DNA of 42,538 nt from contig DATDGW010000560.1 in the NCBI GenBank assembly GCA_036521895.1, positions 1 to 42,538 on the forward strand. The letters are read 5' to 3'. This DNA comes from Candidatus Sulfotelmatobacter sp. GTDB taxonomy: Bacteria; Acidobacteriota; Terriglobia; Terriglobales; Acidobacteriaceae. Shown here one piece after another: positions 132 through 31,085 of the stretch. Position 1 is the stretch's first letter. Each line of letters starts with the position of its first letter. The position numbers were made by a program, and so were the translations under genes. The notes below the pieces were generated by a model that saw nothing but the letters and a program-made list of their open reading frames with translations, was not told where the DNA came from and made no database searches.

Positions 132-1300
132 CTACTTCTTCAGCTCTGCCGGCCAGTTGAGCACCAGCGTGAGGGATCGCTGCCCTCTTTCAGGTTGCCG
201 ATGTTGACCAGAAACTTCTTGCCGTCGGCGGTAGCATCGAAGGGGCCGTTCTGCCGCTGGATGGCGCTGGCCTGAAACAATGTATGGGGCACGCCCATCT
301 GAGGCGCACTGCCGGAGAGGCTCACATCGACGGCTACGATGTCGTCGGTTGGATCGAGGAAGAATAATTCCTTGCCGTCCTTGCGCCACCGGCCAGCAGA
401 CCCGCCATTGGTCGAGACCTGCCACTTTGCGCCACCCGCCGGAAATGCGGTGATATAGACCTCGTTTCGCCCGGATTCGTTCGTGCTATAAGCGCGCCAC
501 TTCCCATCGGGCGAAACTGCTGGCCAGGTCTTCAAGAAAGGTGTCTGAACAAGAGGGAAAGGCTTACGGTCGCCAAACAATGGCAGAACCCACAAGTCAG
601 TGCTGGGCTGGCCACCGGAACGCCGCAAGTAAACCAGATAACGCCCGTCTGGTGAGGTCGTCGGCACTCCCCCTTCTGCATCCTTGCTCTCGATGACTAC
701 CTGGTCCGAGCCGCTGCCGTCCGGAGCCTTAGCGTAGAGGTGGAATCCTCCGTTGCTGTTGGATTGGTAGAACACCGTCTTGCCGTCGGGCGACCATGCG
801 GGCGACAACTGGCTCGCGGTTCCGAAGGTCAGGCGGGTTTTGGTTCCGCGGGCCAGATCGAGAATCCAGATCGCTTGCGTGCCCTGCGTGCTGTTGAAGA
901 GGTTGATGGCCAGTCTCGTGCCGTCGGGAGAGAGCGCGGGATAGAAATAGCGGTCGGGGTCACCGACCGTACTCACCGGCTTTCCGTCTCTTGTGAACCA
1001 CTGCAGATTCCAGTTTCCCGCGGTCGGCCCGGCTTCGTACACCATGGTTCCATTCTCAGAGACGGGAAAAATTGGTCGGGTGACCGCTCCGTTGATGGCG
1101 ATGTGTTCGGCAACCGGAACGGCCTCACCAGTAACGTCGAGTGTGCGCGGGTTGAAAGGGCGCGCCATCAAGGTCTGCTCCCGCATGAACAGCAGTGGCC
1201 GGCGGCGTACTCAGCCATGGTCTCGCTTTTCATCAACGCTTTCGCATTAAGACAGTTCAACTCTCCCACATCCAGCATGCTAGTGCCATGGGTGCGCCTG
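132..1300 (-). pseudogene. decayed, 5'-truncated paralog of the Ser/Thr-kinase/TolB-propeller genes; only the C-terminal beta-propeller survives, with two frameshifts
   Basis: ORF 140..1186 aligns by eye to the C-terminal propeller of the 9509..12205 product (SPDG.. blades, ELYITSFP/EVYITAFP). Homology continues upstream of its ATG in another frame (..KSETMAEYAAGH | LLFMREQTLMARPF versus AAEYASGYLLYPANTALVAQTF), which implies a 1-nt indel near 1195. The family C-terminus ..SLTLVLNWPAELKK sits in the frame of ORF 132..425, which implies a second 1-nt indel in the C-run at 183..185. No kinase domain, TM segment or first propeller is present. Homology ends next to the stop codon of the neighbouring gene (1348). 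Confidence 0.65.
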
Positions 1301-1347: not shown

Positions 1348-4300
1348 CTAGCGCTGGCGCACCTCCAGTTGGACCGGTCGTGCGATCGAGCTGACGTCCG
1401 GGTCATAGTACTCATAGACGCGCGACTGGAACGTCTGCGCGCGGATGGGGTACTTGGCTCGCAGGCGAAAATGCAACGTGAGTGTGTCGCCGGGAGCGAT
1501 CGAATCGAAGTAGAGAATTGCTTGTGTCGCGGTGAGTCTGAACTTCTCCAGGCGACCACTCTTAAGGCCGGCGCTTTTCTCAACATGGGTTTGCAAGTCC
1601 TCGCTGAGCAGATCGAATCCGGGCGGGATTCCCAGGTCAACCATCACCATGTTCGCGGCCTTGGGCAAATTGTTTCTGACGGTAGCGGTGGCAGTGGCGA
1701 TGTCATCCTGGGACAGATGAGTGCGATCGTAGGCCACGTTGATGGACATCGGTTCGTTCGCGGGTTTCTCGTCCCAAGGGAGAAAGTAGCTGCCGACCAC
1801 CTGGTAGGCCAGGCCACCCTTACCTTCGAATCGAAGTTCGACGGTGTTGGAGTCCTCCGAACCGATGGATGTTGCCTCGACCCCCTTGAACACGAACTGA
1901 TGCAGCAAGTCATTGTTCTCTGGAGTCAGAGTGAGTCTCTCGACGGGCTTGCCGTTGAGCAGGACCTCCAGCGTACCTTGAACGTCGGCTGTGCCCTTCT
2001 CAGTTGCGAGCAGCAGAGCCCGCAGCGCCATGATTGTCGCTTGTGTCGTGCCCCATATGCCGGAAGCGTCTTTCTTGGAAGCGATGTAACTGAGGGCCTT
2101 GCGCGCAGTGCCGGATGCCTCGCCCCACTTGAGCAGCGCTTGTACCGCGAGCGCCGTGGTTTCAGCGCTCGCACTGGCGCCGGTGGCATAGACACCGGTT
2201 TCGTCTGAGTTCCACCAGGCCTGCTCGTCTTTTTCAGTGCGCGCGTCGAGCAGAAGCTGCATGGCCTGGCGAGTGAAGGCTCGATCCTTTTCACCATTGC
2301 CGGATCCAAATTCTGTGGCAAAGTTGGCGACGATGGCCAGCGTGTAGCTGTCGACCTTGGCGCTCATGTGGCTCTCGATAAACGGCTTCGCTTTTTCGAC
2401 TGCTGGGCCTTGGTACCCAGTGTTCTCAAGCGACCATGCGATGTAGGCGGTGATGCGAAGGACGTCGGAGTTGTAGCGGTTTGTGGCTCCCTCATTAATG
2501 AACTGCGTATCGGGCTTCCAACTTCCATCGGCTTGCTGCTGCGATGCGAGCCACTGCTGGATTCGTGCGATCAGTCGTGGATCTAGGTCGTAGACCTTCG
2601 ACATGTCGCTGAACTCCATAAGACCGTACGCCGTCAGGATCTTGTTGGCGGGTACGTTGCCGAACCAGGAGAAACCGCCGCCCGGAACTTCAAACGTCAG
2701 GAGGCGTTGATAGCCGTTGGCAATGTAACCTTCGGCTTTGGCGTGGACTTCGGGAGTCAGTTTCTTCGTGCGCTTCATGTACTCGAGCGCCAGAACGTTC
2801 GGGTAGGTGCTGGAGGAGGTCTGCTCAAAGCAACCGCCCGGCATGCGAAGAATGCTGTCCATGCCTTCGATCACCTGGCTCAGGGGGCCCGGGTAGAGCC
2901 TGACAAAAATCCTGCTGGCGTCAGGAACGGAACTCGCGGGGAAGATGAGTTCGTGTTGAACCGTGTTTTCCAGGCGTCCGTTAAAGACCATGTTCTGTTC
3001 GCGGCCGTTGGGAATGACTTCGATCTCGCGGACAACGATGTCGGCGCGTTCTGCGCCGCCCTTCATGCGGGCCGAAAGCGTCAGCTTGAACTTGCCGATG
3101 CGCCGGGCTTCGAGAGTGAACTGAGATCCACCGACGCGGGCAGAGTCCACTGCGACGGACTTGTCGGACACATCATCGACCAGTGAGAACCAGTCGTCCG
3201 GTTGCAGTTTCAGGATGACGTCTCCACGCGCACCTGAGTAGTTGTACACGGCTACGGGGATCGAGACTCGATCGCCTTCGGTGAGCGTGACAGGCAGATC
3301 AAGGTCAACGAAGAAGTCTTGGAAGACTTTCAGGCTCGACGTGGCACTGCCTAACGCCCCGTGGGTGGTGGATGCGAGCATTGCCATCCGCCATGTGGTG
3401 ATGGAGTCCGCCACAGGAATCGTGATCGTCGCCGCGCCGCTTTGGTCGGTGACGATCTCGGGATTGATGTAGAGCGCCTCGGGGAAGTAGGAGCGGACGT
3501 GAGCGGTGGGGCCGGGATCCTCTTTCTTGTCCTTGGCGCGAATCGCAATGTTCAAGGTTGTGGCTGTTCCCATGTCGATCGGGCCCGCAACTGGCGCTTG
3601 AGGCATCGCAAGGTCCATAAAATCGCGGCCATTGACGGCAAGGGCGGCCTCGCCCACATTGCCGCCAATGGCCTTAGCGAGTCCATTGCGGGATTCAACA
3701 ATTACACTGGCCGCGTTGACTTCGACGGTCTCGCTCACGGACCCAACAGACAGAACCGTAGAGACCACAGCGCGATCGCGCGGGCGAAGGGTGAGTCCAC
3801 GCCAAGCAGTCTTGAATCCCGCCAAAGACACTCGCAGGTCGTAGCGGCCGGCGGGCAGACCTGCCAGAGTGAATTGCCCTGCACCATTTGCGGCCACGGT
3901 TCGTGTTTTTCCCGTGGAGGTGTCGCGAATCGTGACGCTGGCTCCCGCGACCATTGCGCCGGAGGGGTCGGCGACTGTGCCTACAATTTCCGCGAGGCCG
4001 TTGAAAGGTCCGCGGTCATGTTCGAGGTTGAGGGTAATCGCGTCCGAATCTGGGTGGCCAACGATCTTCCCGCTGCGAACCGCTACATAGGCCGCCATAT
4101 CGTCGGGGCTGTCGAAGCGGTGATCGGGGCCCGCACTGCGCACGATGTAGTGGGTCTTGTCGCGATACCACTGCACAGATTCGAGGCGAAACTGGGTTCC
4201 CCAGGAGTCGAAAAGGTCGGTCCCGCCGGTCTTCGAGATTCTCGCGAAAACCCTGGTCAGATCATCCTTCTCCGGATTGTCGCGGTAGGCACGACTGAGG

Positions 4301-6696
4301 CGTTCGGCCAACTGGTGGACCTGATCCATGAAACGGGCCTGATAACGAGCGGCATAGTCCGGGTATTTCGTCATGGGCAGGGTCCGGCCGAACTCCGTCT
4401 CAAATTTGTTTGCCCCGACTAATTCTGTGTTTGAAAACAAGGCACGCGCAGCGCGGTTGCGCTGTTCGATTTTCGACTCTTCCACCGGTTTGACGATTTC
4501 CGACATCCCGATGGAGTGGATCTCATAGCGGGGCTTCATCACCTCTTGCTCGAGGTAGAAGAACACTTTGGCGAAGCCGGGCTGCTTCTCGGCCAGCGCG
4601 AAGACGGCCTCATCGACGACTTGGACGCCGAGCGCCGCGCTCACGCCTTCGCCTCGAGAGTTGGTCACGTGGAAGCGGATGCGGGCTTCGCCGCCGGGTT
4701 TGTACGCGGAAGCATCGGCCACCGCATCGATCTTGAGTTCATCTGCCGGTTGCACGAAGACGAGGCGGTGATCGGCGATCGCTTGGGCATTGCGCCCAAA
4801 AAGATAAGCATTGAAGTCCACGGTTCCTGCCAGTTCCGGGGTCGCGGTGAGGGAGAATGCGGCGTGGCCGTTCTCGATGTCGAGATCCCGGGTCAGCACC
4901 GTCTGGCCGTCCTTGACGATGTCGAGATAAGCGGCGCCCTGTTTCTTGGTGGAAAGGATTCTCAGGTCAATGCGGTCCCCCGCCTGGTAGATTGCGCGTT
5001 CTGGGCGCAGAAGAATCTGATCCTCACCCTGACGGGTTTGCAGTTGAACCGTGCTCGACGCGTGGTTTCCTTCATCGTCCTGACCTTCGATCTCGAGGGC
5101 CCCTGTTGCGGTAATGGGGCTGATGGTGACCATGGCAACGCCGCCTGCATCGGTGGTCGCACGCTGGTCGACATTGCCTTCCGCGTGGACCTTGAGGCTT
5201 GCGCGGGCCGGTGTTCCGTCGGGGTAAGAGGTCACGATGAAAACCTGATTGTCGAGATTGGGGACAAGCGCGCCTCCCTCCGGAACCGCCATGATGAGTA
5301 GAGGAGATTCGCTGACGGTAATCGGCTCGCCACGAGTCTCGGCGTGCTCCGCGGAATCTTTCACCGTGGCCTCAATCAGCACGCGGGCTGCGCCCTGACT
5401 GAGAGAACGGCCAGCGAAATACTTAGGCAGGGTCAGATCGAAGTGGTAGGTTCCCTCGTGGTCGGTCTTGCCTTGCACGAAGGCCACTTCGAAAACAGAC
5501 ACATCCATGCTGGAGGCTTTGACGGTGATCCCCGCGTCGTCGACCGGTTTGCCAAAGAAGTAGTAGGCACGAACCGTGCCGGTGACGTGATCGCCGGGGC
5601 GGTAGCCGCGCTTCGCCTTGTTGCCGTTACCCGCGAAATCGATGGCGACCTTGAATTTCGGCAGCACGTAGCGTTCGACGTTGAGGGCGATCTCGGCGGT
5701 GTTCGTGGGCGCTTCGCTCTCACCCATCAAAGCACGGAGATGGTAGGTGCCCAAGTTGACTTCATCGGCGAGTCCAAATTCTGCGGAAGCAATTCCGAAC
5801 CGGTCGGTTTGTGTCGCCTTCTTGAATACCTTGTTGCCGCGAGAGTCTTCGACTTCAAAGGTCAGCTTGCGGTTCGCGGCGGCCTCGCGATTGGAACGAT
5901 CGAGCGCCAACGCGCGCACATGAATCGACTGTCCGGGCTGGTAAATCGGTTTCTCGGTGGTGAGAAGAATTGCAACCTTATCTTCGAGCCGTACCGCCTG
6001 CATGAACTCTGTTGACCCAATCGGGGTGTCGACCGAGTAGCGCAATTGATAATTGCCTTCTACGCCGGCCGGGAACCGGAATTGCGCTTCGGTTGTTCCT
6101 CGCCGATTGAGCCGTCCTGAGAAGAGCAAGCGGGATTTCTGCTCGGGCATCAGCAGGTCGACCTGCACAGAGTTGCGCCCGGCAATGACCTCGTCGTGGG
6201 AATCAGTGACGATGACGCGCACCGCAGCATCGCCACCTGTCAAGTAGGATTGCTGGCCCAGAATGTGGAGCACTCGTGTGCGCAGGATTTGAGAGATGGA
6301 TTCCGTGCCTTCGATCGCGGTCGTCTTGCTGTCGCTGTATTCGAAGCGGTAGTGCACGCGGTGCCACACTAGTTCGTCAAGGGCCAGCGGCTTCGCCAGC
6401 TTGATCTGTTCGCGCCAGCTCCCCGGGCCCCCAGCGACCTGGACGTGCTGTTCCACGTGCCCGAGGACTTGGTCCTCCGGATCCAGAATCTCCATGGTGA
6501 GTCGACCCATACCGGAATGAGCCGCGTCGTAGGGAATTACCAGGTTCACGACGCCGTGCCCATAGGTGGCATTGGCGGCCCGTTCGCGGTTGCTGGCCTG
6601 GAACTGTTGAACGGTCACGATTGCAGCAACAATTAGTAGGGCAGGAAGGAACAACAACCGAAGTCTGGATGCGGCGTGTCCATCGGAATCTTCCAT
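1348..6696 (-). CDS. alpha-2-macroglobulin family thioester protein, membrane-anchored, with inserted GspG-like and CarboxypepD_reg-like modules
   Basis: 1782-aa ORF with GGAG 6 nt before the ATG. It has an N-terminal hydrophobic anchor (LLFLPALLIVAAIVTV, no lipobox Cys) and the A2M signature RSYFPEALYINPEIVTD..DSITTWRM. The thioester motif GCFEQT is intact (CFEQ = 2821..2832). A helical TED-like region follows (YIANGYQRLL..GGFSWF..DGSW). Confidence 0.9.
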   Translation of the reverse strand: MEDSDGHAASRLRLLFLPALLIVAAIVTVQQFQASNRERAANATYGHGVVNLVIPYDAAHSGMGRLTMEILDPEDQVLGHVEQHVQVAGGPGSWREQIKLAKPLALDELVWHRVHYRFEYSDSKTTAIEGTESISQILRTRVLHILGQQSYLTGGDAAVRVIVTDSHDEVIAGRNSVQVDLLMPEQKSRLLFSGRLNRRGTTEAQFRFPAGVEGNYQLRYSVDTPIGSTEFMQAVRLEDKVAILLTTEKPIYQPGQSIHVRALALDRSNREAAANRKLTFEVEDSRGNKVFKKATQTDRFGIASAEFGLADEVNLGTYHLRALMGESEAPTNTAEIALNVERYVLPKFKVAIDFAGNGNKAKRGYRPGDHVTGTVRAYYFFGKPVDDAGITVKASSMDVSVFEVAFVQGKTDHEGTYHFDLTLPKYFAGRSLSQGAARVLIEATVKDSAEHAETRGEPITVSESPLLIMAVPEGGALVPNLDNQVFIVTSYPDGTPARASLKVHAEGNVDQRATTDAGGVAMVTISPITATGALEIEGQDDEGNHASSTVQLQTRQGEDQILLRPERAIYQAGDRIDLRILSTKKQGAAYLDIVKDGQTVLTRDLDIENGHAAFSLTATPELAGTVDFNAYLFGRNAQAIADHRLVFVQPADELKIDAVADASAYKPGGEARIRFHVTNSRGEGVSAALGVQVVDEAVFALAEKQPGFAKVFFYLEQEVMKPRYEIHSIGMSEIVKPVEESKIEQRNRAARALFSNTELVGANKFETEFGRTLPMTKYPDYAARYQARFMDQVHQLAERLSRAYRDNPEKDDLTRVFARISKTGGTDLFDSWGTQFRLESVQWYRDKTHYIVRSAGPDHRFDSPDDMAAYVAVRSGKIVGHPDSDAITLNLEHDRGPFNGLAEIVGTVADPSGAMVAGASVTIRDTSTGKTRTVAANGAGQFTLAGLPAGRYDLRVSLAGFKTAWRGLTLRPRDRAVVSTVLSVGSVSETVEVNAASVIVESRNGLAKAIGGNVGEAALAVNGRDFMDLAMPQAPVAGPIDMGTATTLNIAIRAKDKKEDPGPTAHVRSYFPEALYINPEIVTDQSGAATITIPVADSITTWRMAMLASTTHGALGSATSSLKVFQDFFVDLDLPVTLTEGDRVSIPVAVYNYSGARGDVILKLQPDDWFSLVDDVSDKSVAVDSARVGGSQFTLEARRIGKFKLTLSARMKGGAERADIVVREIEVIPNGREQNMVFNGRLENTVQHELIFPASSVPDASRIFVRLYPGPLSQVIEGMDSILRMPGGCFEQTSSSTYPNVLALEYMKRTKKLTPEVHAKAEGYIANGYQRLLTFEVPGGGFSWFGNVPANKILTAYGLMEFSDMSKVYDLDPRLIARIQQWLASQQQADGSWKPDTQFINEGATNRYNSDVLRITAYIAWSLENTGYQGPAVEKAKPFIESHMSAKVDSYTLAIVANFATEFGSGNGEKDRAFTRQAMQLLLDARTEKDEQAWWNSDETGVYATGASASAETTALAVQALLKWGEASGTARKALSYIASKKDASGIWGTTQATIMALRALLLATEKGTADVQGTLEVLLNGKPVERLTLTPENNDLLHQFVFKGVEATSIGSEDSNTVELRFEGKGGLAYQVVGSYFLPWDEKPANEPMSINVAYDRTHLSQDDIATATATVRNNLPKAANMVMVDLGIPPGFDLLSEDLQTHVEKSAGLKSGRLEKFRLTATQAILYFDSIAPGDTLTLHFRLRAKYPIRAQTFQSRVYEYYDPDVSSIARPVQLEVRQR

Positions 6697-6949: not shown

Positions 6950-6991
6950 CAAGAAAAGATGGCTGACGGGGGTTCCTATCGCTCCGTCAGC
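6950..6991 (-). terminator. candidate intrinsic terminator downstream of the small peptide gene
   Basis: The minus-strand RNA reads gGCUGACGG, a 14-nt loop, CCGUCAGCc, then CAUCUUUUCUUGUGUGG. That is a 9-bp GC-rich stem followed by a U-rich tail. It starts about 80 nt after the stop codon at 7074..7076. Confidence 0.45.
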
Positions 6992-7073
6992 CCAAAGATT
7001 GCGAACCCAAAGATTCGGCTCAATGACGACCGCTGGTTTCGTCTGCGCGGTCGGCGTTTTGGCCGTCAGCTTA

Positions 7074-7247
7074 CTAGCTCAACGGCGGAAGGGTCGTCGA
7101 GCAGTTGGGCTGGCGGGGTGGGCACAGAATGAGTGGGCCCCCGTCTGCGGCGGAAATGGGTTGAACACTTGCAGCGATGAAAGTACCTACCATCCCTACG
7201 GCCAGAATCGCGATCCTGATTGCCAACTTTGCATTCATCTTTACCAT
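7074..7247 (-). CDS. small secreted Cys/Pro-rich peptide precursor (57 aa), family unknown
   Basis: AAGGAG (7260..7255) is followed by 7 nt and then ATG at 7247. The product is MVKMNAKLAIRIAILAVGMVGTFIAASVQPISAADGGPLILCPPRQPNCSTTLPPLS, with a basic n-region, a hydrophobic core and an A-x-A-like cleavage site, leaving about 24 mature residues with C-x6-C. The 89-aa version in the track starts upstream of the sigma-54 promoter, so the shorter form is preferred. Confidence 0.55.
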   Translation of the reverse strand: MVKMNAKLAIRIAILAVGMVGTFIAASVQPISAADGGPLILCPPRQPNCSTTLPPLS

Positions 7248-7316
7248 CGTCTTGCTCCTTAGTTCCTGGGATTTTGTTTCCTTGCTCGGGCCGTCCGTCG
7301 CAAGTGACTTTAGTAA

Positions 7317-7332
7317 TGCAAGCCGCATGCCA
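7317..7332 (-). promoter_or_regulatory. sigma-54 (RpoN) -24/-12 promoter
   Basis: The minus strand reads t-TGGCATG-CGGC-TTGCA-tt, against the consensus YTGGCACG-N4-TTGCW. That is 15/16 core matches with exact GG/GC spacing. It lies about 70 nt upstream of the peptide ATG and 145 bp from the divergent sigma-54 activator gene. Confidence 0.6.
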
Positions 7333-7394: not shown

Positions 7395-7475
7395 GGTCCT
7401 CGTCTCAGACCCCGGTCAAAGATCGTTCGGGGCCAACAGTCCAACAAAAGCGCTAGTGGGTAACACTTATGTTAG

Positions 7476-9476
7476 GTGGAAGGGATGTCGGGGCCGGTAG
7501 GGTCCGGGTATACTCATTGCGTCATGGGCGATTCGGGCGAAAAGGCTGTCGCCGCCATGGGTGGGGCGCGGCTCGAAGCGGTAAGTGGGCCCCTTAAAGG
7601 GACGCTCTTTCCCCTGATGGGGGATGAGATCTCGATCGGTCGAGATCCGTCCAATGAAATCTCGTTGCTCGATTCCCTGGTATCGCGGCGCCACTGCGTC
7701 ATCCGTAAGGAAGCGAGCGGATTCCGGCTTCAGGATCTGGAGAGCCGCAACAACACTTTTGTCAGCGGGGTCCCGGTAATGGATCGGGTGCTTGTGCACG
7801 GGGACCAGATCCGGGTGGGTAATTCGATCCTTGTCTTCCAAGGGTCAAATAGTGAGTCGGGTCTCGGCAATGCCTGCTTACAACTCGATGCGACTCCGGT
7901 GCCGGGCGCCGCGACCGTAATCCTGCGAAGGGAGGATGCCCGGTACCTGCAGCCTTCCCGGCCGGAAGGACTCCCCGCGACGGCTAAAACGGTTCGCGAC
8001 CTCAATGTGCTGCTCGAGTTCAGCCGGACGCTGAACTCGGTGCGCGGCCTGGCAGCTCTGCAAGAGAAGGTGCTGGAGGCGGTTCTGGCAATAGTCCCCG
8101 CGGATCAAGCTGCTGTATTGCTGACCGAAAAAGGAGTCGCTGGCTTCTCTTCGATTGTGGGTCAGCACCGCCGGCTGGGGCCCAATCAGCCGATCCATGC
8201 CAGCCAGACGATCCTGAACCGCGTGCTGGAGGAGAATCTGGCCGTACTTTCCAACGATGTCCAAAGCGACGACGCCTACCGTGAGTCCGAGAGCCTGCTG
8301 GAACGACGGGTCCACTCGGTCCTGGCTGTCCCGCTCGAAGTGCAGGAAAAGATTCTAGGAGTGATGTACCTGGACGCCAGTTCTCCGGGCGCGCGCTTCG
8401 ATTCGGACCTTCTGCAATTGGTGACGACGCTGGGAAACATCACTGCGCTCGCGATTGAAAACGCGGGGCACGTCGAGATGCTGGGAGGTGAGAACCGCCG
8501 ACTGAACGAGGAACTGAGCATACACCACAGCATGATCGGGGAAAGCAAGGCCATGCACGAGGTGTATGCATTCGTTTCCCGGGTTGCGGGGCGGGATTCG
8601 ACGGTCCTTATATCCGGCGAGAGCGGCACCGGAAAAGAACTGGTGGCGCGCGCCGTCCACATGAACAGTGGCCGGGCCGACAAGCCGTTTGTCGCTATTA
8701 ACTGCGCGGCCATTACTGAAACCTTGCTGGAAAGCGAGCTGTTCGGGCACGAACGAGGGGCGTTTACAGGCGCAGTCTCACAGAAGAAAGGGAAGCTCGA
8801 GGTCGCCGAAGGCGGCACCGTTTTTCTGGATGAGATCGGGGAGTTGGCGGTTCCGATGCAGGCCAAACTCCTCCGCGTTTTGCAGGAGAGGGAATTCGAA
8901 CGAGTAGGCGGTACCCGTCCCATCAAACTCGACGTCCGACTGATCGCCGCGACGAATCGCGAGCTGAAGGAGGCATCGCGCACGGGAGCTTTTCGACCGG
9001 ACCTCTATTATCGCCTCAATGTGGTGGCGCTTCATATGCCGGCGCTCCGCGAGCGGCGAGAGGATATCCCAATGCTGGCGGCATTCTTCGCGACGCAATA
9101 TGGCGAAAAAGTGAAGCGGAAGGTAGCGGGCATCTCTCCGCAGGCTCGTGCCTGCCTAACGAGCTATGCTTGGCCGGGCAACGTACGCGAATTGGAAAAC
9201 GCTATCGAACGAGCCGTGGTGCTGGGCTCAACCGAATTAATCCTCGCCGAGGACTTGCCGGACTCGATTTTGGAAGAAACCGCCGCCACTGGGGAACCAG
9301 TGAGCGCGCTGCACGATGGCATCCGCGAGGCGAAGAAGGTGCTGATCGAGAGGGCCATCGAGCAGGCGAATGGAAATTACACCGATGCTGCGAAAATCCT
9401 GGGAGTGCATCCCAACCATTTATTTCGTTTGGTTCGCACGCTCAACCTCAAGCCAAAAAGGCAGCGACAAGGGTAA
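7476..9476 (+). CDS. sigma-54-dependent transcriptional activator with FHA-GAF-AAA+-Fis HTH architecture
   Basis: The FHA signature is [29 protein letters not shown]-like middle region follows. The AAA+ domain has Walker A GESGTGKE and the sigma-54 contact loop GAFTGA (8757..8774). A C-terminal Fis-type HTH is present ([18 protein letters not shown]). The ORF maximum starts at GTG 7476; the true start is more likely ATG 7524 or 7557 ([15 protein letters not shown]). Confidence 0.9.
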
Positions 9477-9508: not shown

Positions 9509-12205
9509 ATGGCTCTTTCCTCAGGCACCCGATTCGGTCCCTACGAAATCCTCTCTCCTGTTGGCGCTGGCGGGATGGGGGAGGTCTATCGGGCCAAGGA
9601 TACCCGCCTCGACCGCACTGTCGCCATTAAGGTTCTGCCCGCGCATCTTTCCTCTGACCCGGAATTGAAACAGCGCCTGGAGCGCGAGGCCAAGGCTATT
9701 TCTGCGCTGCAGCACGCGAATATCTGCACGCTTTACGATATCGGCACGCAGGACGGCACCACCTTCCTGGTCATGGAGTTTCTCGAAGGCCAGACTCTTG
9801 CGGAGCGTCTGGCAAAAGGTGCACTGCCCCTAGATCAGGTTCTGAAGATCGGTACGGAAATCGCGCAGGCCCTGGAGAAAGCGCATCAACAAGGAATTGT
9901 CCACCGTGATCTGAAACCGGCGAACGTCATGCTGACGAAAGCCGGCGCGAAGCTGATGGACTTCGGACTGGCGAAGCCCGAGATGTCGATTGCGTCGAAG
10001 GCCGCCGGGCCGTTTACTCCCTCGACGCCCACGATGAATCTTGCTTCGCTCACAGCGGCTACGTCGCCGCTCACGCAGAAGGGTTCCATCGTCGGAACCT
10101 TTCAATATATGGCCCCGGAAGTTCTGCAAGGAGCAGAAGCCGACGCGCGCAGCGATCTGTTCAGCTTCGGCTGCGTTCTCTACGAAATGGTGACCGGTCG
10201 CCGCGCATTCGAAGGCAAATCGCAACTCAGCGTATTCACTGCCATTTTGGAAAAAGATCCGGAGCCCATCAGGGCCAGCCAGCCTTTGACGCCGGCCATG
10301 CTTGAACGCGTGGTGGGCGCATGCCTCGCCAAAGATCCCGCCGATCGGTTCCAATCGGCGCACGACGTTGCGATGGATCTGCGCTGGCTCGCGGAAGCTG
10401 CGCCGGCGGAATCCGCAAGACCAGCTTCGCTGTTCAACAAGTCCTGGACTGCCGGATGGGCAGCCTTTCTGTTTGGATTCGTTGCCCTCGCCGGACTCGC
10501 CGGATACCGCTGGGCAAGATCCTCAGGGGATCGTGTATCGATCCACGCCGAAGTTCCCATGTCGGACAAGTTTTCCCTGGATGCCACCGGGGACGCAGGG
10601 GGCATGCCCGTGCTTTCCCCACAGGGCGACAAAATCGCCTTCGTCGCTCACTCGGGTGAAACCAAGCTGCTGTGGGTGCGCTCGCTCAGCACCGATTCGG
10701 CGCAAGCCCTCGAAAGCACCAACGGCGCTGTGCATCCTTTCTGGTCACCGGATGGCCGCTACATCGGGTTCTTTGCTGACGGCAAGTTGATGAAGATCGC
10801 CGCCACGGGGGGCCCGGTCGCGGTCTTGGCCGATGCTCCCAATTCACGCGGAGGAACTTGGGGCGTCAGCGACGTGATTGTGTTCAGCCCAGATTTTCAA
10901 GGTGCGCTGGCAAAAGTAGGCGCCCAGGGGGGTCCAGCAACCCCAGCGACGGTGATCGATAAAGCGAAGCACTCCACGCATCGCTGGCCCTGGTTCCTGC
11001 CCGACGGCAAACATTTTATTTTTCTGGCAACTAGTCACAGCGGAGGCGATCCCAAGCAGAACGGAATCTACTTCGGGTCAATCGACAGCTCGGAGACCCA
11101 CCTGGTGGTGGTGTCCGATGCGGCGGCAGAGTATGCATCTGGCTATCTCCTCTACCCGGCCAACACGGCTCTGGTGGCACAAACTTTCGATCCACAAAAG
11201 GGCAGATTGTCCGCGTCCCCCATTCCGCTGGTGAACAACCTGCGCAACGATGTGGGTGTGTGGCGCAGCATTTTCGCGGTCTCGCAGGACGGACTCTTGA
11301 TCTACCAGGCGGGCCGGGCGGCCGCGGCAAACAGCCGGATGGTGTGGTTCGACCGTTCGGGCAAGGCGCTAGCGGACTTCGATCCTCATGAGGCCTCGGT
11401 GATTGATGTGCGCCTCTCACCCGATAACAAGCGAGTTGCATTCGCAAGCGGACTCGGTATTTGGACGTTCGACCTTGAGCGCAAGACCAAGACGCGCATC
11501 ACCTTCGACCAACAGTTGGTGCGGGAACCCGCATGGTCTCGGGACGGCAAAGCGCTGGTATTCTCAGCGCAAGTCACCGCAGGCGGCGGCAACGTTGAAA
11601 TCCGCTCCAAAGCCGCCGATGGCAGTGGCAGCGAAAAGACATTGTTTGCCGAGCAGAACAACTTCCACTTCCCGGACTGGTCGCCCGACGGGAAATACCT
11701 AACCTACCTTTGGGGCGATGGCGAAAAGATGGTGTCGCTGTGGATACGCCCCGCCACCGGAGAGGGCAAGCCGGTTGCAGTCGTGGAACCGCCATCGCAG
11801 CAATCCAATATTTACTTTTATCGAATTTCGCCGGATGGCCACTGGGTCGCCTACGCGTCGGACGAATCCGGACAGCAGGAGCTTTACATCACGAGCTTCC
11901 CGGAGGGCAAAGGGAAATGGAAGATTTCATCGGGTGGCGGGTATTACGCAGCCTGGAGCGGAAATAGTAAAGAACTCTTCTATTCGGCTCTGACTGACGA
12001 CTTCTACGCTTGTCCCGTAACCCCAAAGGGAGCGGAGATCGAAGTCGGCACACCGCAGCATCTGTTCCACACCACGTTGCCCGCGGTCGGCGTATTGTTC
12101 GACGTGTCGTCCGACGGAAAGCGGTTGCTGGTGAACCACGCGGAGGAGGAGGCGCAAGCTCCGCTGCGGTTAGTCACGAACTGGCTCGCGGAGTTGAAGA
12201 AATGA
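9509..12205 (+). CDS. Hanks-type Ser/Thr protein kinase with one TM segment and a periplasmic TolB/DPP-IV-N-like double beta-propeller
   Basis: Kinase motifs are GAGGMGEVYRA, VAIK, HRDLKPANVM, DFGLAK and the APE-like YMAPE. The TM segment is WAAFLFGFVALAGLAGY. Repeated SPDG/SPQG..F blades follow, and the C-terminus is LRLVTNWLAELKK. The gene starts 32 nt after the activator stop on the same strand. Confidence 0.9.
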   Translation: MALSSGTRFGPYEILSPVGAGGMGEVYRAKDTRLDRTVAIKVLPAHLSSDPELKQRLEREAKAISALQHANICTLYDIGTQDGTTFLVMEFLEGQTLAERLAKGALPLDQVLKIGTEIAQALEKAHQQGIVHRDLKPANVMLTKAGAKLMDFGLAKPEMSIASKAAGPFTPSTPTMNLASLTAATSPLTQKGSIVGTFQYMAPEVLQGAEADARSDLFSFGCVLYEMVTGRRAFEGKSQLSVFTAILEKDPEPIRASQPLTPAMLERVVGACLAKDPADRFQSAHDVAMDLRWLAEAAPAESARPASLFNKSWTAGWAAFLFGFVALAGLAGYRWARSSGDRVSIHAEVPMSDKFSLDATGDAGGMPVLSPQGDKIAFVAHSGETKLLWVRSLSTDSAQALESTNGAVHPFWSPDGRYIGFFADGKLMKIAATGGPVAVLADAPNSRGGTWGVSDVIVFSPDFQGALAKVGAQGGPATPATVIDKAKHSTHRWPWFLPDGKHFIFLATSHSGGDPKQNGIYFGSIDSSETHLVVVSDAAAEYASGYLLYPANTALVAQTFDPQKGRLSASPIPLVNNLRNDVGVWRSIFAVSQDGLLIYQAGRAAAANSRMVWFDRSGKALADFDPHEASVIDVRLSPDNKRVAFASGLGIWTFDLERKTKTRITFDQQLVREPAWSRDGKALVFSAQVTAGGGNVEIRSKAADGSGSEKTLFAEQNNFHFPDWSPDGKYLTYLWGDGEKMVSLWIRPATGEGKPVAVVEPPSQQSNIYFYRISPDGHWVAYASDESGQQELYITSFPEGKGKWKISSGGGYYAAWSGNSKELFYSALTDDFYACPVTPKGAEIEVGTPQHLFHTTLPAVGVLFDVSSDGKRLLVNHAEEEAQAPLRLVTNWLAELKK

Positions 12206-12762: not shown

Positions 12763-15324
12763 TTACTTCAGGCCGCGCACCAGAAACAGATTGGCAAGAT
12801 CACGCTGGAAGGTTGTCGCGCAAGCCTTTCCGTCTGCTGACAACGCCAATGGCCCGAGGAACTGAGCTCCTGGTTCAGGAACCTTCACTACCAGCCAAGG
12901 TTCTTTGCGACGCGTGGTCACCCCGAGACGGCTGATCTTGATGCTGGCGGGCCCGCGCTGTTGCAGGAACAGGTATCGTCCGTCACCGCTCCATCGCACG
13001 ACGCTTTCTCCTTGCAAGTCGGCGATGGTTTTGGAATCTCCGCCGCCAACCGGAGAGAGCAGCAGCTTGTGCGGGTCCACGGTGATGAACCACTTGCCGT
13101 CGGGCGAGACCCGCGTGCCACGCGTTCCTTCGGGCGTGAGAGGAGTCGATTTGTTTGTTTCCAGGTCGTACATCCACGTGCGGGTTGTGTGACCGGTTTC
13201 ATTGCCAGTGAACAGGATGTGCTTGTTGTCGGGGAACCACTCCACGCCATCGAAGTGCATGCCTTCAATTTTTGGGAAGCGCGATTCCCCGGGGCCGGTC
13301 GGAAGCAACATCAGACTCGACGTCCCCCCCTCATGGTGGATGCAGGCCACCCACTTCCCATCCGGCGAAAGCGAAGGCCGGTTCCCGGAGCCCAGCTGTA
13401 TGGCGGGAGAACCGTCTGTCTTCCTCAAATAGATTGCGGAGTTGCGCCCCTGGCCGCTGGAAAGCTCGACGAAGACAATGGATTGGGCGTCACTGGAAAG
13501 GTCATACATCAAGGAAGAATCGAGCCACGCCAGATCGCGTTGTGCCGTCCCGTTCGGCGGTAAATAGTGGATGCCTAGACGGGAATTGACCGTGGTCAGC
13601 AGGACGCGGCCATCCCGGGCTACATCCTGCATCACAATCATTCCGCCAGTTTGAGAAACCAGTCGCTGCGCACCGGAGAGGGTCACCGCGTAGAGTGCGG
13701 GATCGCCGCCGGGCTGGCCACCAGAGAACCAGACTTCGCGATTGTCCGGTGACCAGTTCAAGGCGCCGATGGCACGCCATCCCCGGGAAAGAACCTGCCG
13801 CGGATGGTTTGGTCCAATCACGCAGAGGGCATAGTCGCCGACTTCGACGTCAAAATCGAAGAACGCAACCAGCTTTCCGTCCGCCGAAACTCGCGGCATC
13901 ATGGGTGGCCGCTTTTCCGTCTCGTACAACACCGTCCCGATGGGATATTCGAGCCGGAACTTTCCGCCGACAACGCGCACTACGGCGAGCGACTCCCCGT
14001 CCGGCCCCCAATCCGCGCCGCTCACGCCTTCAAGCACCTCGCGCGGAGCTCCGCCACCAAACGGCACGCGGGCCAACGTGCCGACATCCTCTCCCCCGAG
14101 AAGAATCGCCATCTCGCCGCTGGGCGAGATCGCGAGCACGCGCCCACTGGGTAGCACCAAGGGCTGGGCTTCGCGATTGCCAGGCTGCGCGGAAAATAAC
14201 GTGGAGGGTGCGCCATCCCACTCGGCACTGTAGACAACCGTGTCCCCGGGAGCGAACTTGGCGGAGGTGACATCCCCACGGCGAAACGTCAAACGCCGGT
14301 ATGACGGTGGCTCGGGAGGTGGACTGTATCTCCGTTCATAGGAGATGCGCAACCCGAGCCCAAGCAAGATTCCAGCCAGCAACCCTGCGCCGATCCAGAG
14401 CCGGATGTGAGATGTGTTACGTGGGCGTGGATTTGGCGCGAGTGCGAAGTTACTGAAATCCATTTCTTCCCGCAACTCTTCGAGGGCCACTTTCACGTCC
14501 GCCATGGTTTGCCAGCGGCGTTCAGGATCTTTCTTCAGGCAGCGGCTGATGATGCGGTCTAGCTCCGGCGGAACATCCGCTACGGCTTGCGAGGCCGGTT
14601 GTGGATCCTTGTAGAGCACCGCCGATAGCGACGACAGCTTGGAGCCACCCGCGAACGCACGTTGGCCCGTAGCCATTTCATAGAGCACGGAGCCGAACGA
14701 AAAAACGTCGGACCGGGTGTCGACCTTCTTGCCGTCGGCCTGCTCGGGAGACATGTAGGCGACGGTTCCGAGGATAGTACCTTCCTCAGTGAGCGGGGAC
14801 GCTTCGCCGTGCAGAGTTTCGGCGTAGGCGTCGGCACCGGCTGGTTCGCTGAGCTTGGCCAATCCGAAATCCAGAATCTTGACTACGCCCAGCGGCGTGA
14901 CGATCACATTCGAGGGCTTCAGATCGCGATGCACGATTCCAGCCGCGTGCGCAGCGGCCAACGCATCCGCGATCTGCACGGCATACTTCAACACATCGCG
15001 GATCCGGAGCCCCTTGCGCCCGATCAGGTGATCGAGCGTATCTCCCGCCACGTACTCCATGGCGATGTATTGGATCGGCTTTCCGTCGACTTCCTGCGTG
15101 TCGATGTCGTAGATCGTGACGATGTTCGGATGGTTGAGAGATGACGCGGCCTTGGCTTCCTGCACGAAGCGTCGTTCGCGGTCTGCATTCAGGGCGGCCG
15201 TGGAGAGAATCTTGATGGCAGCAGTTCGGCCAAGACGAGAATCCACCGCCCTATAGACCACACCCATGCCACCGGCCCCCAACTTGGCCTCAATGCGGTA
15301 CGAGCGAAGTGATTTGCCGATCAT
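12763..15324 (-). CDS. Hanks-type Ser/Thr protein kinase with a TM segment and a TolB-like beta-propeller sensor (second paralog)
   Basis: Kinase motifs are GAGGMGVVYRA, AAIK, HRDLKPSNVI, DFGLAK and YMSPE. The TM segment is IGAGLLAGILLGLGL. SPDG/SADG blades follow. The ORF maximum is 15354; ATG 15324 (MIGKSLRSYRI) gives the usual short N-terminus. Confidence 0.9.
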   Translation of the reverse strand: MIGKSLRSYRIEAKLGAGGMGVVYRAVDSRLGRTAAIKILSTAALNADRERRFVQEAKAASSLNHPNIVTIYDIDTQEVDGKPIQYIAMEYVAGDTLDHLIGRKGLRIRDVLKYAVQIADALAAAHAAGIVHRDLKPSNVIVTPLGVVKILDFGLAKLSEPAGADAYAETLHGEASPLTEEGTILGTVAYMSPEQADGKKVDTRSDVFSFGSVLYEMATGQRAFAGGSKLSSLSAVLYKDPQPASQAVADVPPELDRIISRCLKKDPERRWQTMADVKVALEELREEMDFSNFALAPNPRPRNTSHIRLWIGAGLLAGILLGLGLRISYERRYSPPPEPPSYRRLTFRRGDVTSAKFAPGDTVVYSAEWDGAPSTLFSAQPGNREAQPLVLPSGRVLAISPSGEMAILLGGEDVGTLARVPFGGGAPREVLEGVSGADWGPDGESLAVVRVVGGKFRLEYPIGTVLYETEKRPPMMPRVSADGKLVAFFDFDVEVGDYALCVIGPNHPRQVLSRGWRAIGALNWSPDNREVWFSGGQPGGDPALYAVTLSGAQRLVSQTGGMIVMQDVARDGRVLLTTVNSRLGIHYLPPNGTAQRDLAWLDSSLMYDLSSDAQSIVFVELSSGQGRNSAIYLRKTDGSPAIQLGSGNRPSLSPDGKWVACIHHEGGTSSLMLLPTGPGESRFPKIEGMHFDGVEWFPDNKHILFTGNETGHTTRTWMYDLETNKSTPLTPEGTRGTRVSPDGKWFITVDPHKLLLSPVGGGDSKTIADLQGESVVRWSGDGRYLFLQQRGPASIKISRLGVTTRRKEPWLVVKVPEPGAQFLGPLALSADGKACATTFQRDLANLFLVRGLK

Positions 15325-15687
15325 GCGTATAGCCCTGGAACCCTTTGGCCGCACCTTGCGGGGGCACGAAATCTACTGATTCGCGGCCGCAACAAATCAA
15401 AAATTCAAATGAAGGTCGTCACAAGACGACAAAGAAAGAACTCAAGAGAAGCAGGTGCGGACGACGATATGCTCATGCTTGCTGAGCCTGTGTGACAGCA
15501 ATTCTACCGCAGAAGGGCGGTATCTTGCTCTTTACTGTGCGGGTCACATTATTCATTTGCCGAAGGACCCCCATGCGAGATCGGGCGTTGCCTTTTCATG
15601 CGCGCTGCCATTCGTTCGATGCCCTACACGGGGTGCGCCCTTTGCAACACTACACAACTGGTGGATGTCATGCTCATTGATTGAGTC

Positions 15688-15715
15688 TTGACATCGGGGC
15701 TGTGGCAAATAGAAT
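15688..15715 (+). promoter_or_regulatory. candidate sigma-70 promoter for the TonB-dependent receptor
   Basis: TTGACA, a 16-nt spacer, then TAGAAT, about 35 nt upstream of the ATG at 15750. It lies inside the N-terminal extension of the track ORF, which argues for the 15750 start. Confidence 0.35.
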
Positions 15716-15749
15716 GACTGACACTTCCAAATTCATCGAGGAAAATGTC

Positions 15750-19697: not shown

Positions 19698-19713
19698 GGA
19701 GGGACGGCTCGTT

Positions 19714-20877
19714 TCACTTGATGCTTTCGGGCGCCGGAACGTCGACCCAGCCGCGCGTGCGATGGCTTCGCATTTCGGCATCGAGGATCCTCAACTGCCG
19801 CAACCCATCGGCGAACTGCGGATACTCGAGCGCTACGCCGGTTGCACCAATGGAAGAGTAGAAGCGCCGGAAGACTTGCTTGAATGTGTCGTCGTAACCC
19901 TCGCTGTGGCCGCCAGGCAGGTCGGCGAACCCGCGCGCCGCGGGTTTCAGCAGTGAAGGATCCTTGATGAAAATCCGGTTGCCGTCATCGCGGTGACCGG
20001 ACCAGAGTTCGTCGGGCCGCTCCTGGTCCCACGCGACGGAAGAACGCGTGCCATAGACTTCAATGCTGAGACGGTTCTTGCGTCCAGCGGAGACCTGGCT
20101 GGCCGTGACGCAGCCTCGCGTACGTGTTCCCATGCGAAAGATCACGGCTCCGAAGTCTTCCGTATCGACCGGCGTCTCAATGTAGTCTTCCGGGCCCAGC
20201 AGTTTGTTCGCGAAGGTTTCGACGGAATGCTTGGGCTGCTTTCGCGTGGGATGGAAGGTCTGAAGATCGGCACAGAGCGACTTCACGCGCAGGCCAGTGA
20301 TGTGCTCGGCCATATCAAACCAGTGCGAGCCGATATCCGCCATGCAACGCGAGGGGCCTCCGGCCTTGGTCTCGACGCGCCAGTTCCAATCTGTGTCGTA
20401 CAGCAGCCAGTCTTGGGAATAGGTGCCCTGGACAACCAGAATGTCACCCAGATCTCCAGCTTCGCGCATCGCGCGCATCTGCTGCACCACAGGGTAGTAG
20501 CGCAAGTTGTGGCAGACGCAATTCCGCAATCCCAGCTTCGCGGCCAGTGAAACCAGCTCTCCGCCTTCTTCCACGCTCGTGGCCAGCGGTTTTTCGCAGA
20601 GCACGTGCTTGCCTGCGTTGAGGGCATCCTTCGCCATGGAGAAATGCTGCGCGTTGGGCGTGCAAATGTGGACTGCGTCGATGGCCGGATCTCGCAGGAT
20701 CTCGCGGTAGTCGGTGGTAATGGTGGGGACGGAAAAGCCCGTGCCGAGTCTTCGCGCTGCGTCGGCACTTCTGCCCGCGATCGCAGCCGCCTCGACGGAT
20801 TCCGTCCGCCGCACCGCCTCAAGATGTACGCGGCCCATAAAGCCGGTGCCGAAAATCGCTGTTTTGATCTGCTTCAT
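19714..20877 (-). CDS. Gfo/Idh/MocA family NAD(P)-dependent oxidoreductase (ThuB-like)
   Basis: The N-terminal Rossmann motif is KTAIFGTGFMGRVH and the family motif is EKPLA. Length is 387 aa and there is no signal peptide. Confidence 0.9.
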   Translation of the reverse strand: MKQIKTAIFGTGFMGRVHLEAVRRTESVEAAAIAGRSADAARRLGTGFSVPTITTDYREILRDPAIDAVHICTPNAQHFSMAKDALNAGKHVLCEKPLATSVEEGGELVSLAAKLGLRNCVCHNLRYYPVVQQMRAMREAGDLGDILVVQGTYSQDWLLYDTDWNWRVETKAGGPSRCMADIGSHWFDMAEHITGLRVKSLCADLQTFHPTRKQPKHSVETFANKLLGPEDYIETPVDTEDFGAVIFRMGTRTRGCVTASQVSAGRKNRLSIEVYGTRSSVAWDQERPDELWSGHRDDGNRIFIKDPSLLKPAARGFADLPGGHSEGYDDTFKQVFRRFYSSIGATGVALEYPQFADGLRQLRILDAEMRSHRTRGWVDVPAPESIK

Positions 20878-20927
20878 CGTGGTTTCTCTCGCTCCCAGTC
20901 GGTCAAGACGACGCTAAGCCATTCAAG

Positions 20928-21887: not shown

Positions 21888-21970
21888 ACCTGTTCTCTCC
21901 TGAAATCGACCGGCAACATTCTATCGCAGACGCCTTATGTTACCTTTTAGATCGACTGGACTCGGCTTTC

Positions 21971-22894: not shown

Positions 22895-22901
22895 GGCCCA
22901 G

Positions 22902-23738: not shown

Positions 23739-23784
23739 CGCGAAACTCTGTTTCTGGTGAGAAGTCTGGGGGATATCTTTCGAT

Positions 23785-25341: not shown

Positions 25342-25350
25342 AGCTCTCCA

Positions 25351-25375
25351 AAGCAAGTCTTTGAAAGACATGCTT
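25351..25375 (+). terminator. imperfect hairpin just after the quinoprotein stop, weak terminator candidate
   Basis: AAGCAAGTCTTT / AAAGACATGCTT forms a 12-bp stem with one mismatch, followed by TCCTCACTT, which is only weakly U-rich. Confidence 0.3.
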
Positions 25376-26697: not shown

Positions 26698-26737
26698 ACG
26701 TCACGGCTAAACCTGGCTTGTCCCGGGAGGAACGTCC

Positions 26738-31061: not shown

Positions 31062-31085
31062 CTTCGCGCAGTGCACGGAGATTTC

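Follow-up and report, generated by a model that had tools for sequence, protein, structure and literature searches.

Organization of the locus

In a stretch of 42,538 nt from Candidatus Sulfotelmatobacter sp. (positions 1 to 42,538 of contig DATDGW010000560.1, assembly GCA_036521895.1; hereafter the window), we analysed a small minus-strand gene that encodes a 57-aa peptide precursor (MVKMNAKLAIRIAILAVGMVGTFIAASVQPISAADGGPLILCPPRQPNCSTTLPPLS), is preceded by a sigma-54 -24/-12 element and is followed by a hairpin with a T-run (Table 1). The gene is divergent from a gene for a bacterial enhancer-binding protein with FHA, GAF, sigma-54 AAA+ and HTH_8 domains, and two genes for receptor Ser/Thr kinases, STK1 and STK2, lie beyond the latter. 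All the sequence elements given in the preliminary description, namely promoter, Shine-Dalgarno sequence, start codon, open reading frame and stem-loop, were confirmed at their positions, and its reading of a compact promoter-RBS-ORF-terminator unit of about 380 nt, under putative sigma-54 control and encoding a putatively exported Cys/Pro-rich peptide next to a divergent FHA-type activator, is supported by comparative evidence.

Table 1. Coordinates of the features identified at the locus
Feature	Coordinates	Strand	Sequence or architecture
Alpha-2-macroglobulin (A2M) gene	1348..6696	-
Intrinsic terminator	6951..6993	-	9-bp G+C-rich stem GGCTGACGG/CCGTCAGCC (6992..6984 and 6969..6961), 14-nt loop, followed by ATCTTTTCTT
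3' UTR	6994..7073	-	Structured; hairpin CGAAU-N7-GUUCG
Precursor CDS	7074..7247	-	57 aa; ATG at 7247; stop TAG at 7076..7074, followed in frame by TAA
Residues 1-33	7247..7149	-	Basic n-region and hydrophobic helix (signal peptide or signal-anchor)
Residues 34-57	7148..7077	-	Core ADGGPLILCPPRQPNCSTTLPPLS, with C-x6-C
5' UTR	7248..7306	-	5'-terminal hairpin CUUGC-N14-GCAAG (7304..7281); motif AAUCCCAGG; AAGGAG (7260..7255), N7 before ATG
Predicted transcription start	near 7306	-
Sigma-54 -24/-12 promoter	7317..7332	-	TGGCATGCGGCTTGCA
Conserved block	7455..7441		TAGCGCTTTTGTTGG
Palindromic operator, candidate enhancer (UAS)	7461..7475		CTAACATAAGTGTTA
FHA-GAF-AAA+ activator	7524..9476	+	ORF list start GTG 7476; probable start ATG 7524
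STK1	9509..12205	+	Same architecture as STK2
STK2	12763..15354	-	Cytoplasmic Hanks-type kinase, one TM segment (residues 317-339), periplasmic PD40/TolB-like beta-propeller

The exact pattern TGGCAY-N5-TTGCW occurs only once in the window, against 0.08 occurrences expected, and 7 of 100 shuffled sequences gave at least one match, whereas, when one mismatch was allowed, the count was no better than chance. The motif alone is therefore only moderately significant, and its weight comes from conservation. The real start of the activator is probably ATG 7524, and not the listed GTG 7476, since the latter start overlaps the conserved palindromic operator, and the distance from promoter to activator gene is therefore about 190 bp rather than the 145 bp previously proposed. 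It had also been suggested that automated callers would probably miss or mis-call the small gene; however, most of the 120 listed database homologues have the 56-60-aa form and only a few carry spurious N-terminal extensions. The 89-aa version of the ORF is an artefact, as in-frame stops and indels that are not multiples of three occur in relatives, with in-frame stops located 24-66 nt upstream of the ATG in at least 9 loci.

Conservation of the transcription unit

We observed the same layout in 27 orthologous loci from other Acidobacteriaceae/Sulfotelmatobacter genomes, plus two more distant family members: a divergent FHA-GAF-AAA+ sigma-54 activator, a unique palindrome (CTAACAnnnnTGTTA) about 150 bp upstream of -24, the -24/-12 element, a 5'-terminal hairpin, the ORF and a terminator. 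A TGG-N9-TGC element is present 80-87 nt upstream of the ATG in every one of the 27 orthologous loci and in loci L028 and L036 (L numbers designate the compared loci), with GG and GC invariant in the orthologous loci. Mean pairwise nucleotide identity is 0.80 for the promoter, 0.71 for the 5' UTR, 0.72 for the CDS and 0.75 for the palindrome block, against 0.40 for the spacer between palindrome and promoter and 0.25 immediately downstream of the terminator. The palindrome, which was not noticed in the preliminary description, occurs once in the window, 143 bp upstream of the -24 element, and at exactly one site per locus in 28 related loci, always in the activator-peptide intergenic region, and its distance to -24 is kept at 141-156 bp although the intervening sequence is not conserved.

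The ORF is coding and under purifying selection, with codon-position diversities of 0.198/0.119/0.362 and a median dN/dS of 0.23. The terminator, a G+C-rich hairpin followed by AUCUUUUCUU, was not called by a simple consensus scan because of its 14-nt loop; nevertheless, 17 of 17 loci keep the stem, and one pair switches between GC (7 loci) and AU (5 loci), a compensatory change. The hairpin in the 3' UTR is partly conserved, with some compensatory changes. In the 5' UTR, RNAalifold found no covarying structure and the CUUGC/GCAAG stem never varies, so that there is no covariation evidence for it, and a role in mRNA stabilisation is only inferred. GGA triplets, considered as possible determinants of CsrA-type control, are not conserved across loci.

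The unusually conserved and structured UTRs, together with the presence of the A2M gene on the same strand about 250 nt after the hairpin in the window and in L001-L009, raised the possibility that the promoter really serves A2M, the small ORF being a leader or attenuator peptide, or that the transcript is mainly a regulatory RNA. This is very unlikely and already largely refuted by synteny, since the A2M gene is absent downstream in L010-L027, L028 and L036, where promoter, ORF and terminator are all retained and the next gene is usually convergent. Moreover, codon-position bias and purifying selection extend along the whole ORF, and no Rfam family was matched at its gathering score (the best matches are 16.8 and 15.7 bits against thresholds of 90 and 80, the latter being Pxr, on the opposite strand). 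The gene is thus monocistronic.

The peptide family and its predicted processing

The peptide belongs to an unnamed family of 189 homologues (clusters at 90% identity), which spans 42-131 aa and for which Pfam, NCBIfam and PDB-sequence searches gave no match; literature searches also found no description of this family, or of the circuit proposed below, in Acidobacteria. Three long proteins retrieved in the profile search (P0124, P0161 and P0166) are low-complexity repeat artefacts, and P0147 and P0187 lie in unrelated gene contexts and may be only motif-level relatives. In the 120 listed homologues, DGGP and both cysteine residues are invariant. Some members carry tandem copies of the core (A-DGGP-x3-C-x4-9-C-..LPP), with four in L027 and P0121, three in P0122 and P0179, and two in P0123, P0125 and P0187, and in L027, P0121, P0122, P0123, P0125 and P0179 each core is preceded by [VLI]-A. 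The unit is therefore a roughly 22-aa Cys-loop peptide, present in one copy in the window gene, and L017 has two tandem genes. We also identified a second paralogue subfamily, with a nearly identical core, that lacks both the activator and the sigma-54 motif, so that the role of the peptide is not tied exclusively to the circuit discussed here. Neither the multi-core relatives nor this subfamily was noticed in the preliminary description.

A Sec-type signal peptide was proposed in the preliminary description, but its cleavage is not established. A basic n-region (K/K/K/R), an alanine at position -1 (before the Asp) in 112 of 120 members, a helix-breaking Q-P before it, and the repetition of the [VLI]-A-D-G-G-P junction before every internal core of the multi-core members, as expected for a processing site, all fit a Sec signal peptide, and release after Ala34 would yield a free peptide of about 23 aa (DGGPLILCPPRQPNCSTTLPPLS, minus 2 Da). 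However, position -3 is serine in 56 and proline in 55 of the 120 members, the latter being poor for signal peptidase I, and the hydrophobic segment is long (about 20 residues) and as conserved as the core (mean distance 0.21 for the N-terminal region and 0.25 for the core). The AF2 model shows a helix at residues 6-28, with high pLDDT, and only low-confidence coil for the rest, and the h-region motif persists even in distant members whose cores have diverged. It is thus possible, although we consider it the less likely reading, that the product of the same sigma-54 unit is not cleaved and is a signal-anchored single-pass small membrane protein (N-in, C-out), whose conserved helix (G-x-x-G, VGMVGTF) contacts a membrane partner such as the TM segment of the kinase, with the Cys-loop tail at the periplasmic face, as an MgrB/PspG-style modulator. 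The multi-core relatives would then be tandem-repeat ectodomains rather than polyprecursors.

There is no lipobox, the first cysteine being residue 42, preceded by L-I-L and 13 residues beyond the hydrophobic segment, and the arrangement is not that of a double-glycine leader, as GG is followed by proline and preceded by a transmembrane-like helix, and no ABC/C39 gene is conserved nearby. Bufferins, Sec-exported Cys-containing RiPP metallophores (PMC11626156), also have a small precursor with conserved cysteines, and a Sec-type signal and periplasmic destination that are only inferred for the peptide, but their defining MNIO (DUF692) and DUF2063 genes are absent from all loci examined, and the peptide has no DUF2282 or BUF_6/12Cys signature and a much shorter core with only two cysteines. 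Exported pheromone precursors (for example Bacillus Phr peptides) and multi-core precursors (cyanobactins; fungal Kex2-processed repeat proteins, PMC7329392) share with this family a short precursor with an N-terminal export signal (inferred for this family), a core that recurs in tandem with a constant junction, and gene and core copy numbers that vary between lineages; however, no processing protease, modification enzyme or dedicated transporter is conserved near the gene, and sigma-54/FHA control of such peptides, or their presence in Acidobacteriota, seems to be without precedent.

A putative kinase-activator-sigma-54 circuit

The activator matches Sigma54_activat (E=3e-72), contains the GAFTGA loop and the FHA GR...SxxH...N residues, and is present and divergent in 27/27 loci, at 78-93% amino acid identity, as well as beside the distant multi-core members P0121 and P0125. 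STK2, whose synteny was not noticed in the preliminary description, is convergent with the activator in 23 loci, at 84-96% identity, although the kinase is not within 10 kb in a few loci (L014, L036). STK1, directly downstream of the activator, is a clade-specific insertion found only in the window and L001 (81% identity), with a 39%-identical relative in L013. The activator and the kinase are the only neighbours conserved across loci. Peptide distances track the kinase ectodomain after controlling for the kinase domain (partial Mantel r=0.50, p=0.001), but the signal is equally strong for the signal-peptide part of the precursor and such tests are inflated by shared phylogeny, and for this reason we regard it as weak support.

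Based on these observations, we consider it more likely than not that the region 7332..6951 (minus strand) is a self-contained, sigma-54-dependent transcription unit and the single dedicated output of the neighbouring signalling module, although, in the absence of expression, transcription-start, binding, phosphorylation or peptide data, every functional step is inferred. We hypothesize that the activator binds the palindrome and remodels the E-sigma54 closed complex at the promoter, and that transcription starts just before the 5' hairpin. The activator would be switched through its FHA domain by phospho-threonine made by the candidate upstream sensor STK2, and by STK1 in this clade, with the GAF domain as a second input. 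The peptide would be exported by Sec, its two cysteines oxidised to a 6-residue loop, and it would probably be released by cleavage at the conserved hydrophobic-Ala|Asp-Gly-Gly-Pro junction. Since it is the only conserved target next to the regulator, it most likely acts in the periplasm or outside the cell as a feedback ligand, modulator or signal of the same kinase pathway.

The closest arrangement is that of zraP-zraSR of E. coli/Salmonella, in which a small exported protein, transcribed from a sigma-54 promoter divergently from the gene of its own activator, acts in the periplasm and represses its own signalling system (Appia-Ayme 2012; PMC4987338). Only the gene arrangement is analogous, as we found no Pfam, NCBIfam or PDB similarity to ZraP/CpxP/Spy proteins, ZraP has about 140 aa and binds zinc, and its input is a histidine kinase and receiver domain instead of a Hanks-type kinase and an FHA domain. 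FHA-domain enhancer-binding proteins of Myxococcus xanthus (Jelsbak, Givskov & Kaiser 2005; cited in PMC12288465) are probably controlled by Ser/Thr kinases, but seem to regulate developmental regulons, apparently without a dedicated adjacent small-peptide target or a syntenic receptor kinase, and the activator described here also carries a GAF domain. MgrB-PhoQ and PspF-psp may offer parallels, as a very small membrane or periplasmic protein with periplasmic cysteines (MgrB) and as a sigma-54/bEBP-driven envelope gene next to its activator (psp), but there is no homology, MgrB appears to be sigma-70/PhoP dependent, PspF appears to lack a sensory domain and neither seems to have tandem core repeats.

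The existence of zraP and of bufferins, together with the Cys-containing, putatively exported nature of the peptide and its expanded core and gene copy numbers, also led us to consider that it is an effector rather than a signal, such as an antimicrobial or bacteriocin-like peptide, or a periplasmic metal- or redox-binding peptide (bufferin- or ZraP-like) induced by envelope or metal stress sensed by the kinase-activator pair. This seems unlikely, since no MNIO/DUF692, DUF2063, immunity, exporter or modification gene is present among the conserved neighbours, the two cysteines are in a C-x6-C arrangement rather than in CxxC or His-rich motifs, and the core is strongly conserved, unlike typical arms-race toxins. 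A further possibility, which is not excluded but remains speculative, is that the peptide is a diffusible, disulfide-looped autoinducer that, once released from a precursor of 1-4 cores, binds the periplasmic TolB-like beta-propeller of the kinase and, through phospho-Thr/FHA activation of the activator, induces its own gene, with a paralogue gene lacking the sigma-54 motif supplying basal peptide. That would be a peptide-based autocrine or quorum-sensing loop in Acidobacteriota, and the first complete eSTK -> FHA-bEBP -> sigma-54 circuit with a known ligand and a known target.

FHA-domain sigma-54 activators and the many receptor-type Ser/Thr kinases of soil bacteria are mostly orphans, with largely unknown ligands, partners and direct targets. 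The locus described here offers a minimal module, conserved across many species, with one activator, one operator, one promoter and one tiny target gene, usually with one syntenic receptor kinase, which makes the whole pathway directly testable, and it also shows that small genes can be validated from sequence alone by phylogenetic footprinting. The peptide family, with its 1-4 cores and two differently regulated subfamilies, is unannotated and could be a new class of exported signalling or feedback peptides in Acidobacteriota, an abundant but poorly understood soil phylum.

The small ORF and its transcription unit

Reading of the minus strand confirmed every element of the preliminary description, namely a sigma-54-type promoter, a Shine-Dalgarno-like AAGGAG separated by seven bases from an ATG, a 57-codon ORF and a following hairpin (see table). 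The exact pattern TGGCAY-N5-TTGCW occurs only once in the 42.5-kb window, with a chance expectation of 0.08; however, 7 of 100 shuffled sequences also gave a hit and, when one mismatch was allowed, the count equalled chance, so that the motif alone is suggestive, but not decisive. The hairpin was not reported by a simple terminator scan, because its loop exceeds the 8-nt limit of that scan, but it was recovered by RNA folding as a 9-bp stem.

Coordinates of the features identified in the window and in related loci
Feature	Location	Strand	Sequence or remark
-24/-12 element	7332..7317	minus	TGGCATGCGGCTTGCA
Predicted transcription start	near 7306		about 12 nt after the GC
5'-terminal hairpin	7304..7281		CUUGC-N14-GCAAG
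AAGGAG	7260..7255	minus	seven bases before the ATG
57-codon ORF, start	ATG at 7247	minus	
57-codon ORF, stops	7076..7071	minus	TAG-TAA
89-aa version of the ORF, start	7343		TTG-initiated
3' UTR between stop codon and terminator	6994..7073	minus	two further hairpins, GACCGC...GCGGUC and CGAAU...GUUCG
Terminator hairpin	6992..6961	minus	GGCTGACGG-N14-CCGTCAGCC, followed by AUCUUUUCUU
Palindrome	7461..7475	matched on both strands	CTAACAnnnnTGTTA
Activator, listed start	7476		GTG
Activator, conserved start	7524		ATG (MGDSGEK...), preceded by TATACTCATTGCGTC
Segment around the activator starts	7476..7526		
Second receptor Ser/Thr kinase	9509..12205	plus	kinase-TM-PD40 propeller
Alpha-2-macroglobulin (A2M)	1348..6696	minus	1782 aa
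Stand-alone PD40 beta-propeller protein	140..1186	minus	
Remainder of the window	15681..42336		
Tandem peptide genes in locus L017	4914-5078 and 5194-5367		
Four-core precursor in locus L027	10001-10366		121 aa
Membrane protein of about 305 aa in locus L032	5763-6683		6-7 TM segments
Membrane protein of about 305 aa in locus L035	1976-2968		6-7 TM segments
Membrane protein of about 305 aa in locus L031	512-1429		6-7 TM segments

A protein search with the 89-aa translation returned 189 clusters, the great majority of those listed being 56-60 aa long, all annotated as 'hypothetical' or unnamed and, where a source names them, coming from Candidatus Sulfotelmatobacter and related Acidobacteriota. 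A genome scan returned 27 loci from 27 species-level genomes (loci are designated L hereafter), across which nucleotide diversity by codon position is 0.198, 0.119 and 0.362, and the median pairwise dN/dS is 0.23. The first ATG is the start, since relatives read MKVKTN... and the second Met is not conserved. In addition, at least nine loci have in-frame stops 24-66 nt upstream of the ATG, and the upstream alignment contains indels that are not multiples of three. The 89-aa version in the ORF list, and similar 82-117-aa calls in databases, are therefore artefacts of an open frame running through the promoter and the 5' UTR.

The regulatory architecture is also conserved. In every locus we observed a TGG-N9-TGC element 80-87 nt before the ATG, in which GG and GC are invariant, while the base after GG varies (TGGCAT, TGGTAC, TGGAAC). 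We also identified in all of them a 15-bp palindrome, located 141-156 bp upstream of -24, although the roughly 100 bp in between is not alignable; this palindrome occurs at a single site in the window and at one site per 20-kb locus. Mean pairwise nucleotide identity among 18 non-redundant loci is 0.75 for the palindrome block, 0.40 for the spacer between palindrome and -24, 0.80 for the -24/-12 element, 0.71 for the 5' UTR, 0.72 for the CDS, 0.61 for the terminator and 0.25 downstream of the terminator. Conservation therefore begins at the promoter and ends at the terminator, as expected for a transcript with those boundaries. The predicted start falls two bases before an invariant hairpin, and such a 5'-terminal hairpin is a plausible mRNA-stabilising feature, although this is an inference. 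The terminator stem is kept in 17 of 17 aligned loci, with one pair alternating between G-C (7 loci) and A-U (5 loci). The two further hairpins of the 3' UTR are partly conserved, and a processed 3'-UTR small RNA cannot be excluded.

Genomic neighbourhood

The divergent gene encodes a protein with FHA, GAF, sigma-54 AAA+ and HTH_8 domains, whose sequence carries the GAFTGA loop and the FHA GR/SxxH/N residues, and which is present and divergent in 27 of 27 loci at 78-93% identity. The activator ORF as listed, with a GTG start, overlaps the conserved palindrome; the conserved start is a downstream ATG, preceded by the invariant TATACTCATTGCGTC. The segment between the two has frame-breaking indels in relatives, and homologues are called at 649 aa. 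This ATG is preceded by TATACTCATTGCGTC and has no Shine-Dalgarno, which suggests a -10 box about 9 nt from the ATG and a near-leaderless mRNA. The palindrome would then sit at about -50 of the activator's own promoter, so autoregulation is possible.

The only other gene conserved in the neighbourhood encodes a receptor Ser/Thr kinase, with a kinase domain, one TM segment at residues 317-339 and a PD40/TolB-like beta-propeller, which is convergent with the activator and was found in 23 loci at 84-96% identity. A second kinase of the same build is inserted between the two only in this clade, being seen only in the window and L001, with a 39%-identical relative in L013.

Downstream of the peptide gene lies a bacterial thioester alpha-2-macroglobulin gene, whose product has a GCFEQ thioester motif and an inserted CarboxypepD_reg domain, followed by the gene of a stand-alone PD40 beta-propeller protein. 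The A2M gene is found in this position only in the window and its nine closest relatives (L001-L009); in L010-L027 the next gene is usually on the opposite strand (10 of 13 loci examined), and it is also convergent in L036, the locus of a more distant family member. So the peptide gene is monocistronic and is not a leader for the A2M gene. The rest of the window appears unrelated, comprising a CarboxypepD_reg/TonB-type outer-membrane barrel protein, sugar oxidoreductases, a PQQ dehydrogenase with cytochrome c, an RND efflux pair and a purine-catabolism cluster (adenosine deaminase, nucleoside permease, xanthine dehydrogenase subunits, urate oxidase, OHCU decarboxylase and M20 peptidases).

The peptide family

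In the 120 listed homologues DGGP and both cysteines (C-x6-C) are invariant, and the residue before Asp is Ala in 112. An exhaustive profile search found 75 representatives at 50% identity (family members designated P hereafter), ranging from 42 to 131 aa, three of which are spurious long repeat proteins. Several members carry tandem cores: four in L027 and P0121, three in P0122 and P0179, and two in P0123, P0125, P0147, P0149, P0154 and P0187. Each core is preceded by hydrophobic-Ala, the same junction that follows the N-terminal hydrophobic segment. In P0121 the four cores differ from one another (C-x5-C, C-x8-C, C-x6-C, C-x8-C), so one gene could yield several distinct peptides. L017 has two tandem genes, with slightly different N-termini and cores, of which only the first has the sigma-54 promoter, so they form a two-gene operon. 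The four-core P0121 and the two-core P0125 sit beside the same activator and, in L028 and L036, they have the same palindrome, -24/-12 element, 5' hairpin and terminator. The functional unit is therefore a peptide of about 22 aa, A-DGGP-x3-C-x4-9-C-x3-LPP, and the repeated junction suggests proteolytic release. However, AF2 models only a helix (residues 6-28, high confidence) and a low-confidence coil, the hydrophobic segment is long and as conserved as the core, and position -3 is often Pro. Cleavage by signal peptidase I is therefore not assured, and a signal-anchored form remains a serious alternative.

We also noticed a second subfamily, whose members begin with MKRAIRIAILMVGLVGTF... (P0096, P0153, P0156) and have nearly the same core, but a different context. 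These always lie downstream of a conserved membrane protein of about 305 aa, with 6-7 TM segments and no Pfam family (51-66% identity between contexts), and the two loci with enough flanking sequence (P0096, P0153) also have a DUF58 protein upstream. A DUF58 protein lies upstream in L032, L033 and L035, and a Thioredox_DsbH protein is convergent downstream in L032 and L033. There is neither an activator nor a -24/-12 motif; instead, a TATAAT-like box is present. The membrane protein could be a partner (receptor, processing or immunity protein) of the peptide.

Comparison with known systems and putative mechanism

The gene arrangement is analogous to that of zraP-zraSR, where a sigma-54-dependent periplasmic accessory protein is divergent from its regulator and feeds back on it (PMC4987338), and FHA-type activators are known from Myxococcus (Jelsbak et al. 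2005, cited in PMC12288465). Sec-exported Cys peptides are known as bufferins (PMC11626156), but the defining MNIO/DUF2063 genes and signatures are absent here. We found no sequence membership in any named family and no Rfam family, and literature searches found no description of this peptide or circuit.

The preliminary interpretation of a compact sigma-54-driven gene for an exported Cys/Pro-rich peptide is supported and extended; the comparative sequence data show a conserved transcription unit with a sigma-54 promoter, a coding small ORF, a dedicated neighbouring activator with a unique candidate operator, and a modular exported-type core. A partial Mantel test indicated that peptide-core distances track the kinase ectodomain beyond the kinase domain (r=0.50, p=0.001), but the signal-peptide region behaves the same and such tests are confounded by phylogeny, so we regard this as weak evidence. 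While the regulatory logic is of a type already known, the peptide family, its multi-core relatives and its coupling to an FHA activator and a receptor Ser/Thr kinase are new. The physiological role is inferred: we hypothesize that the receptor kinase acts through phospho-Thr on the FHA domain of the activator, which would activate E-sigma54, and that the peptide would then be exported, form a disulfide and probably be cleaved, acting in the periplasm or outside the cell on the same pathway.
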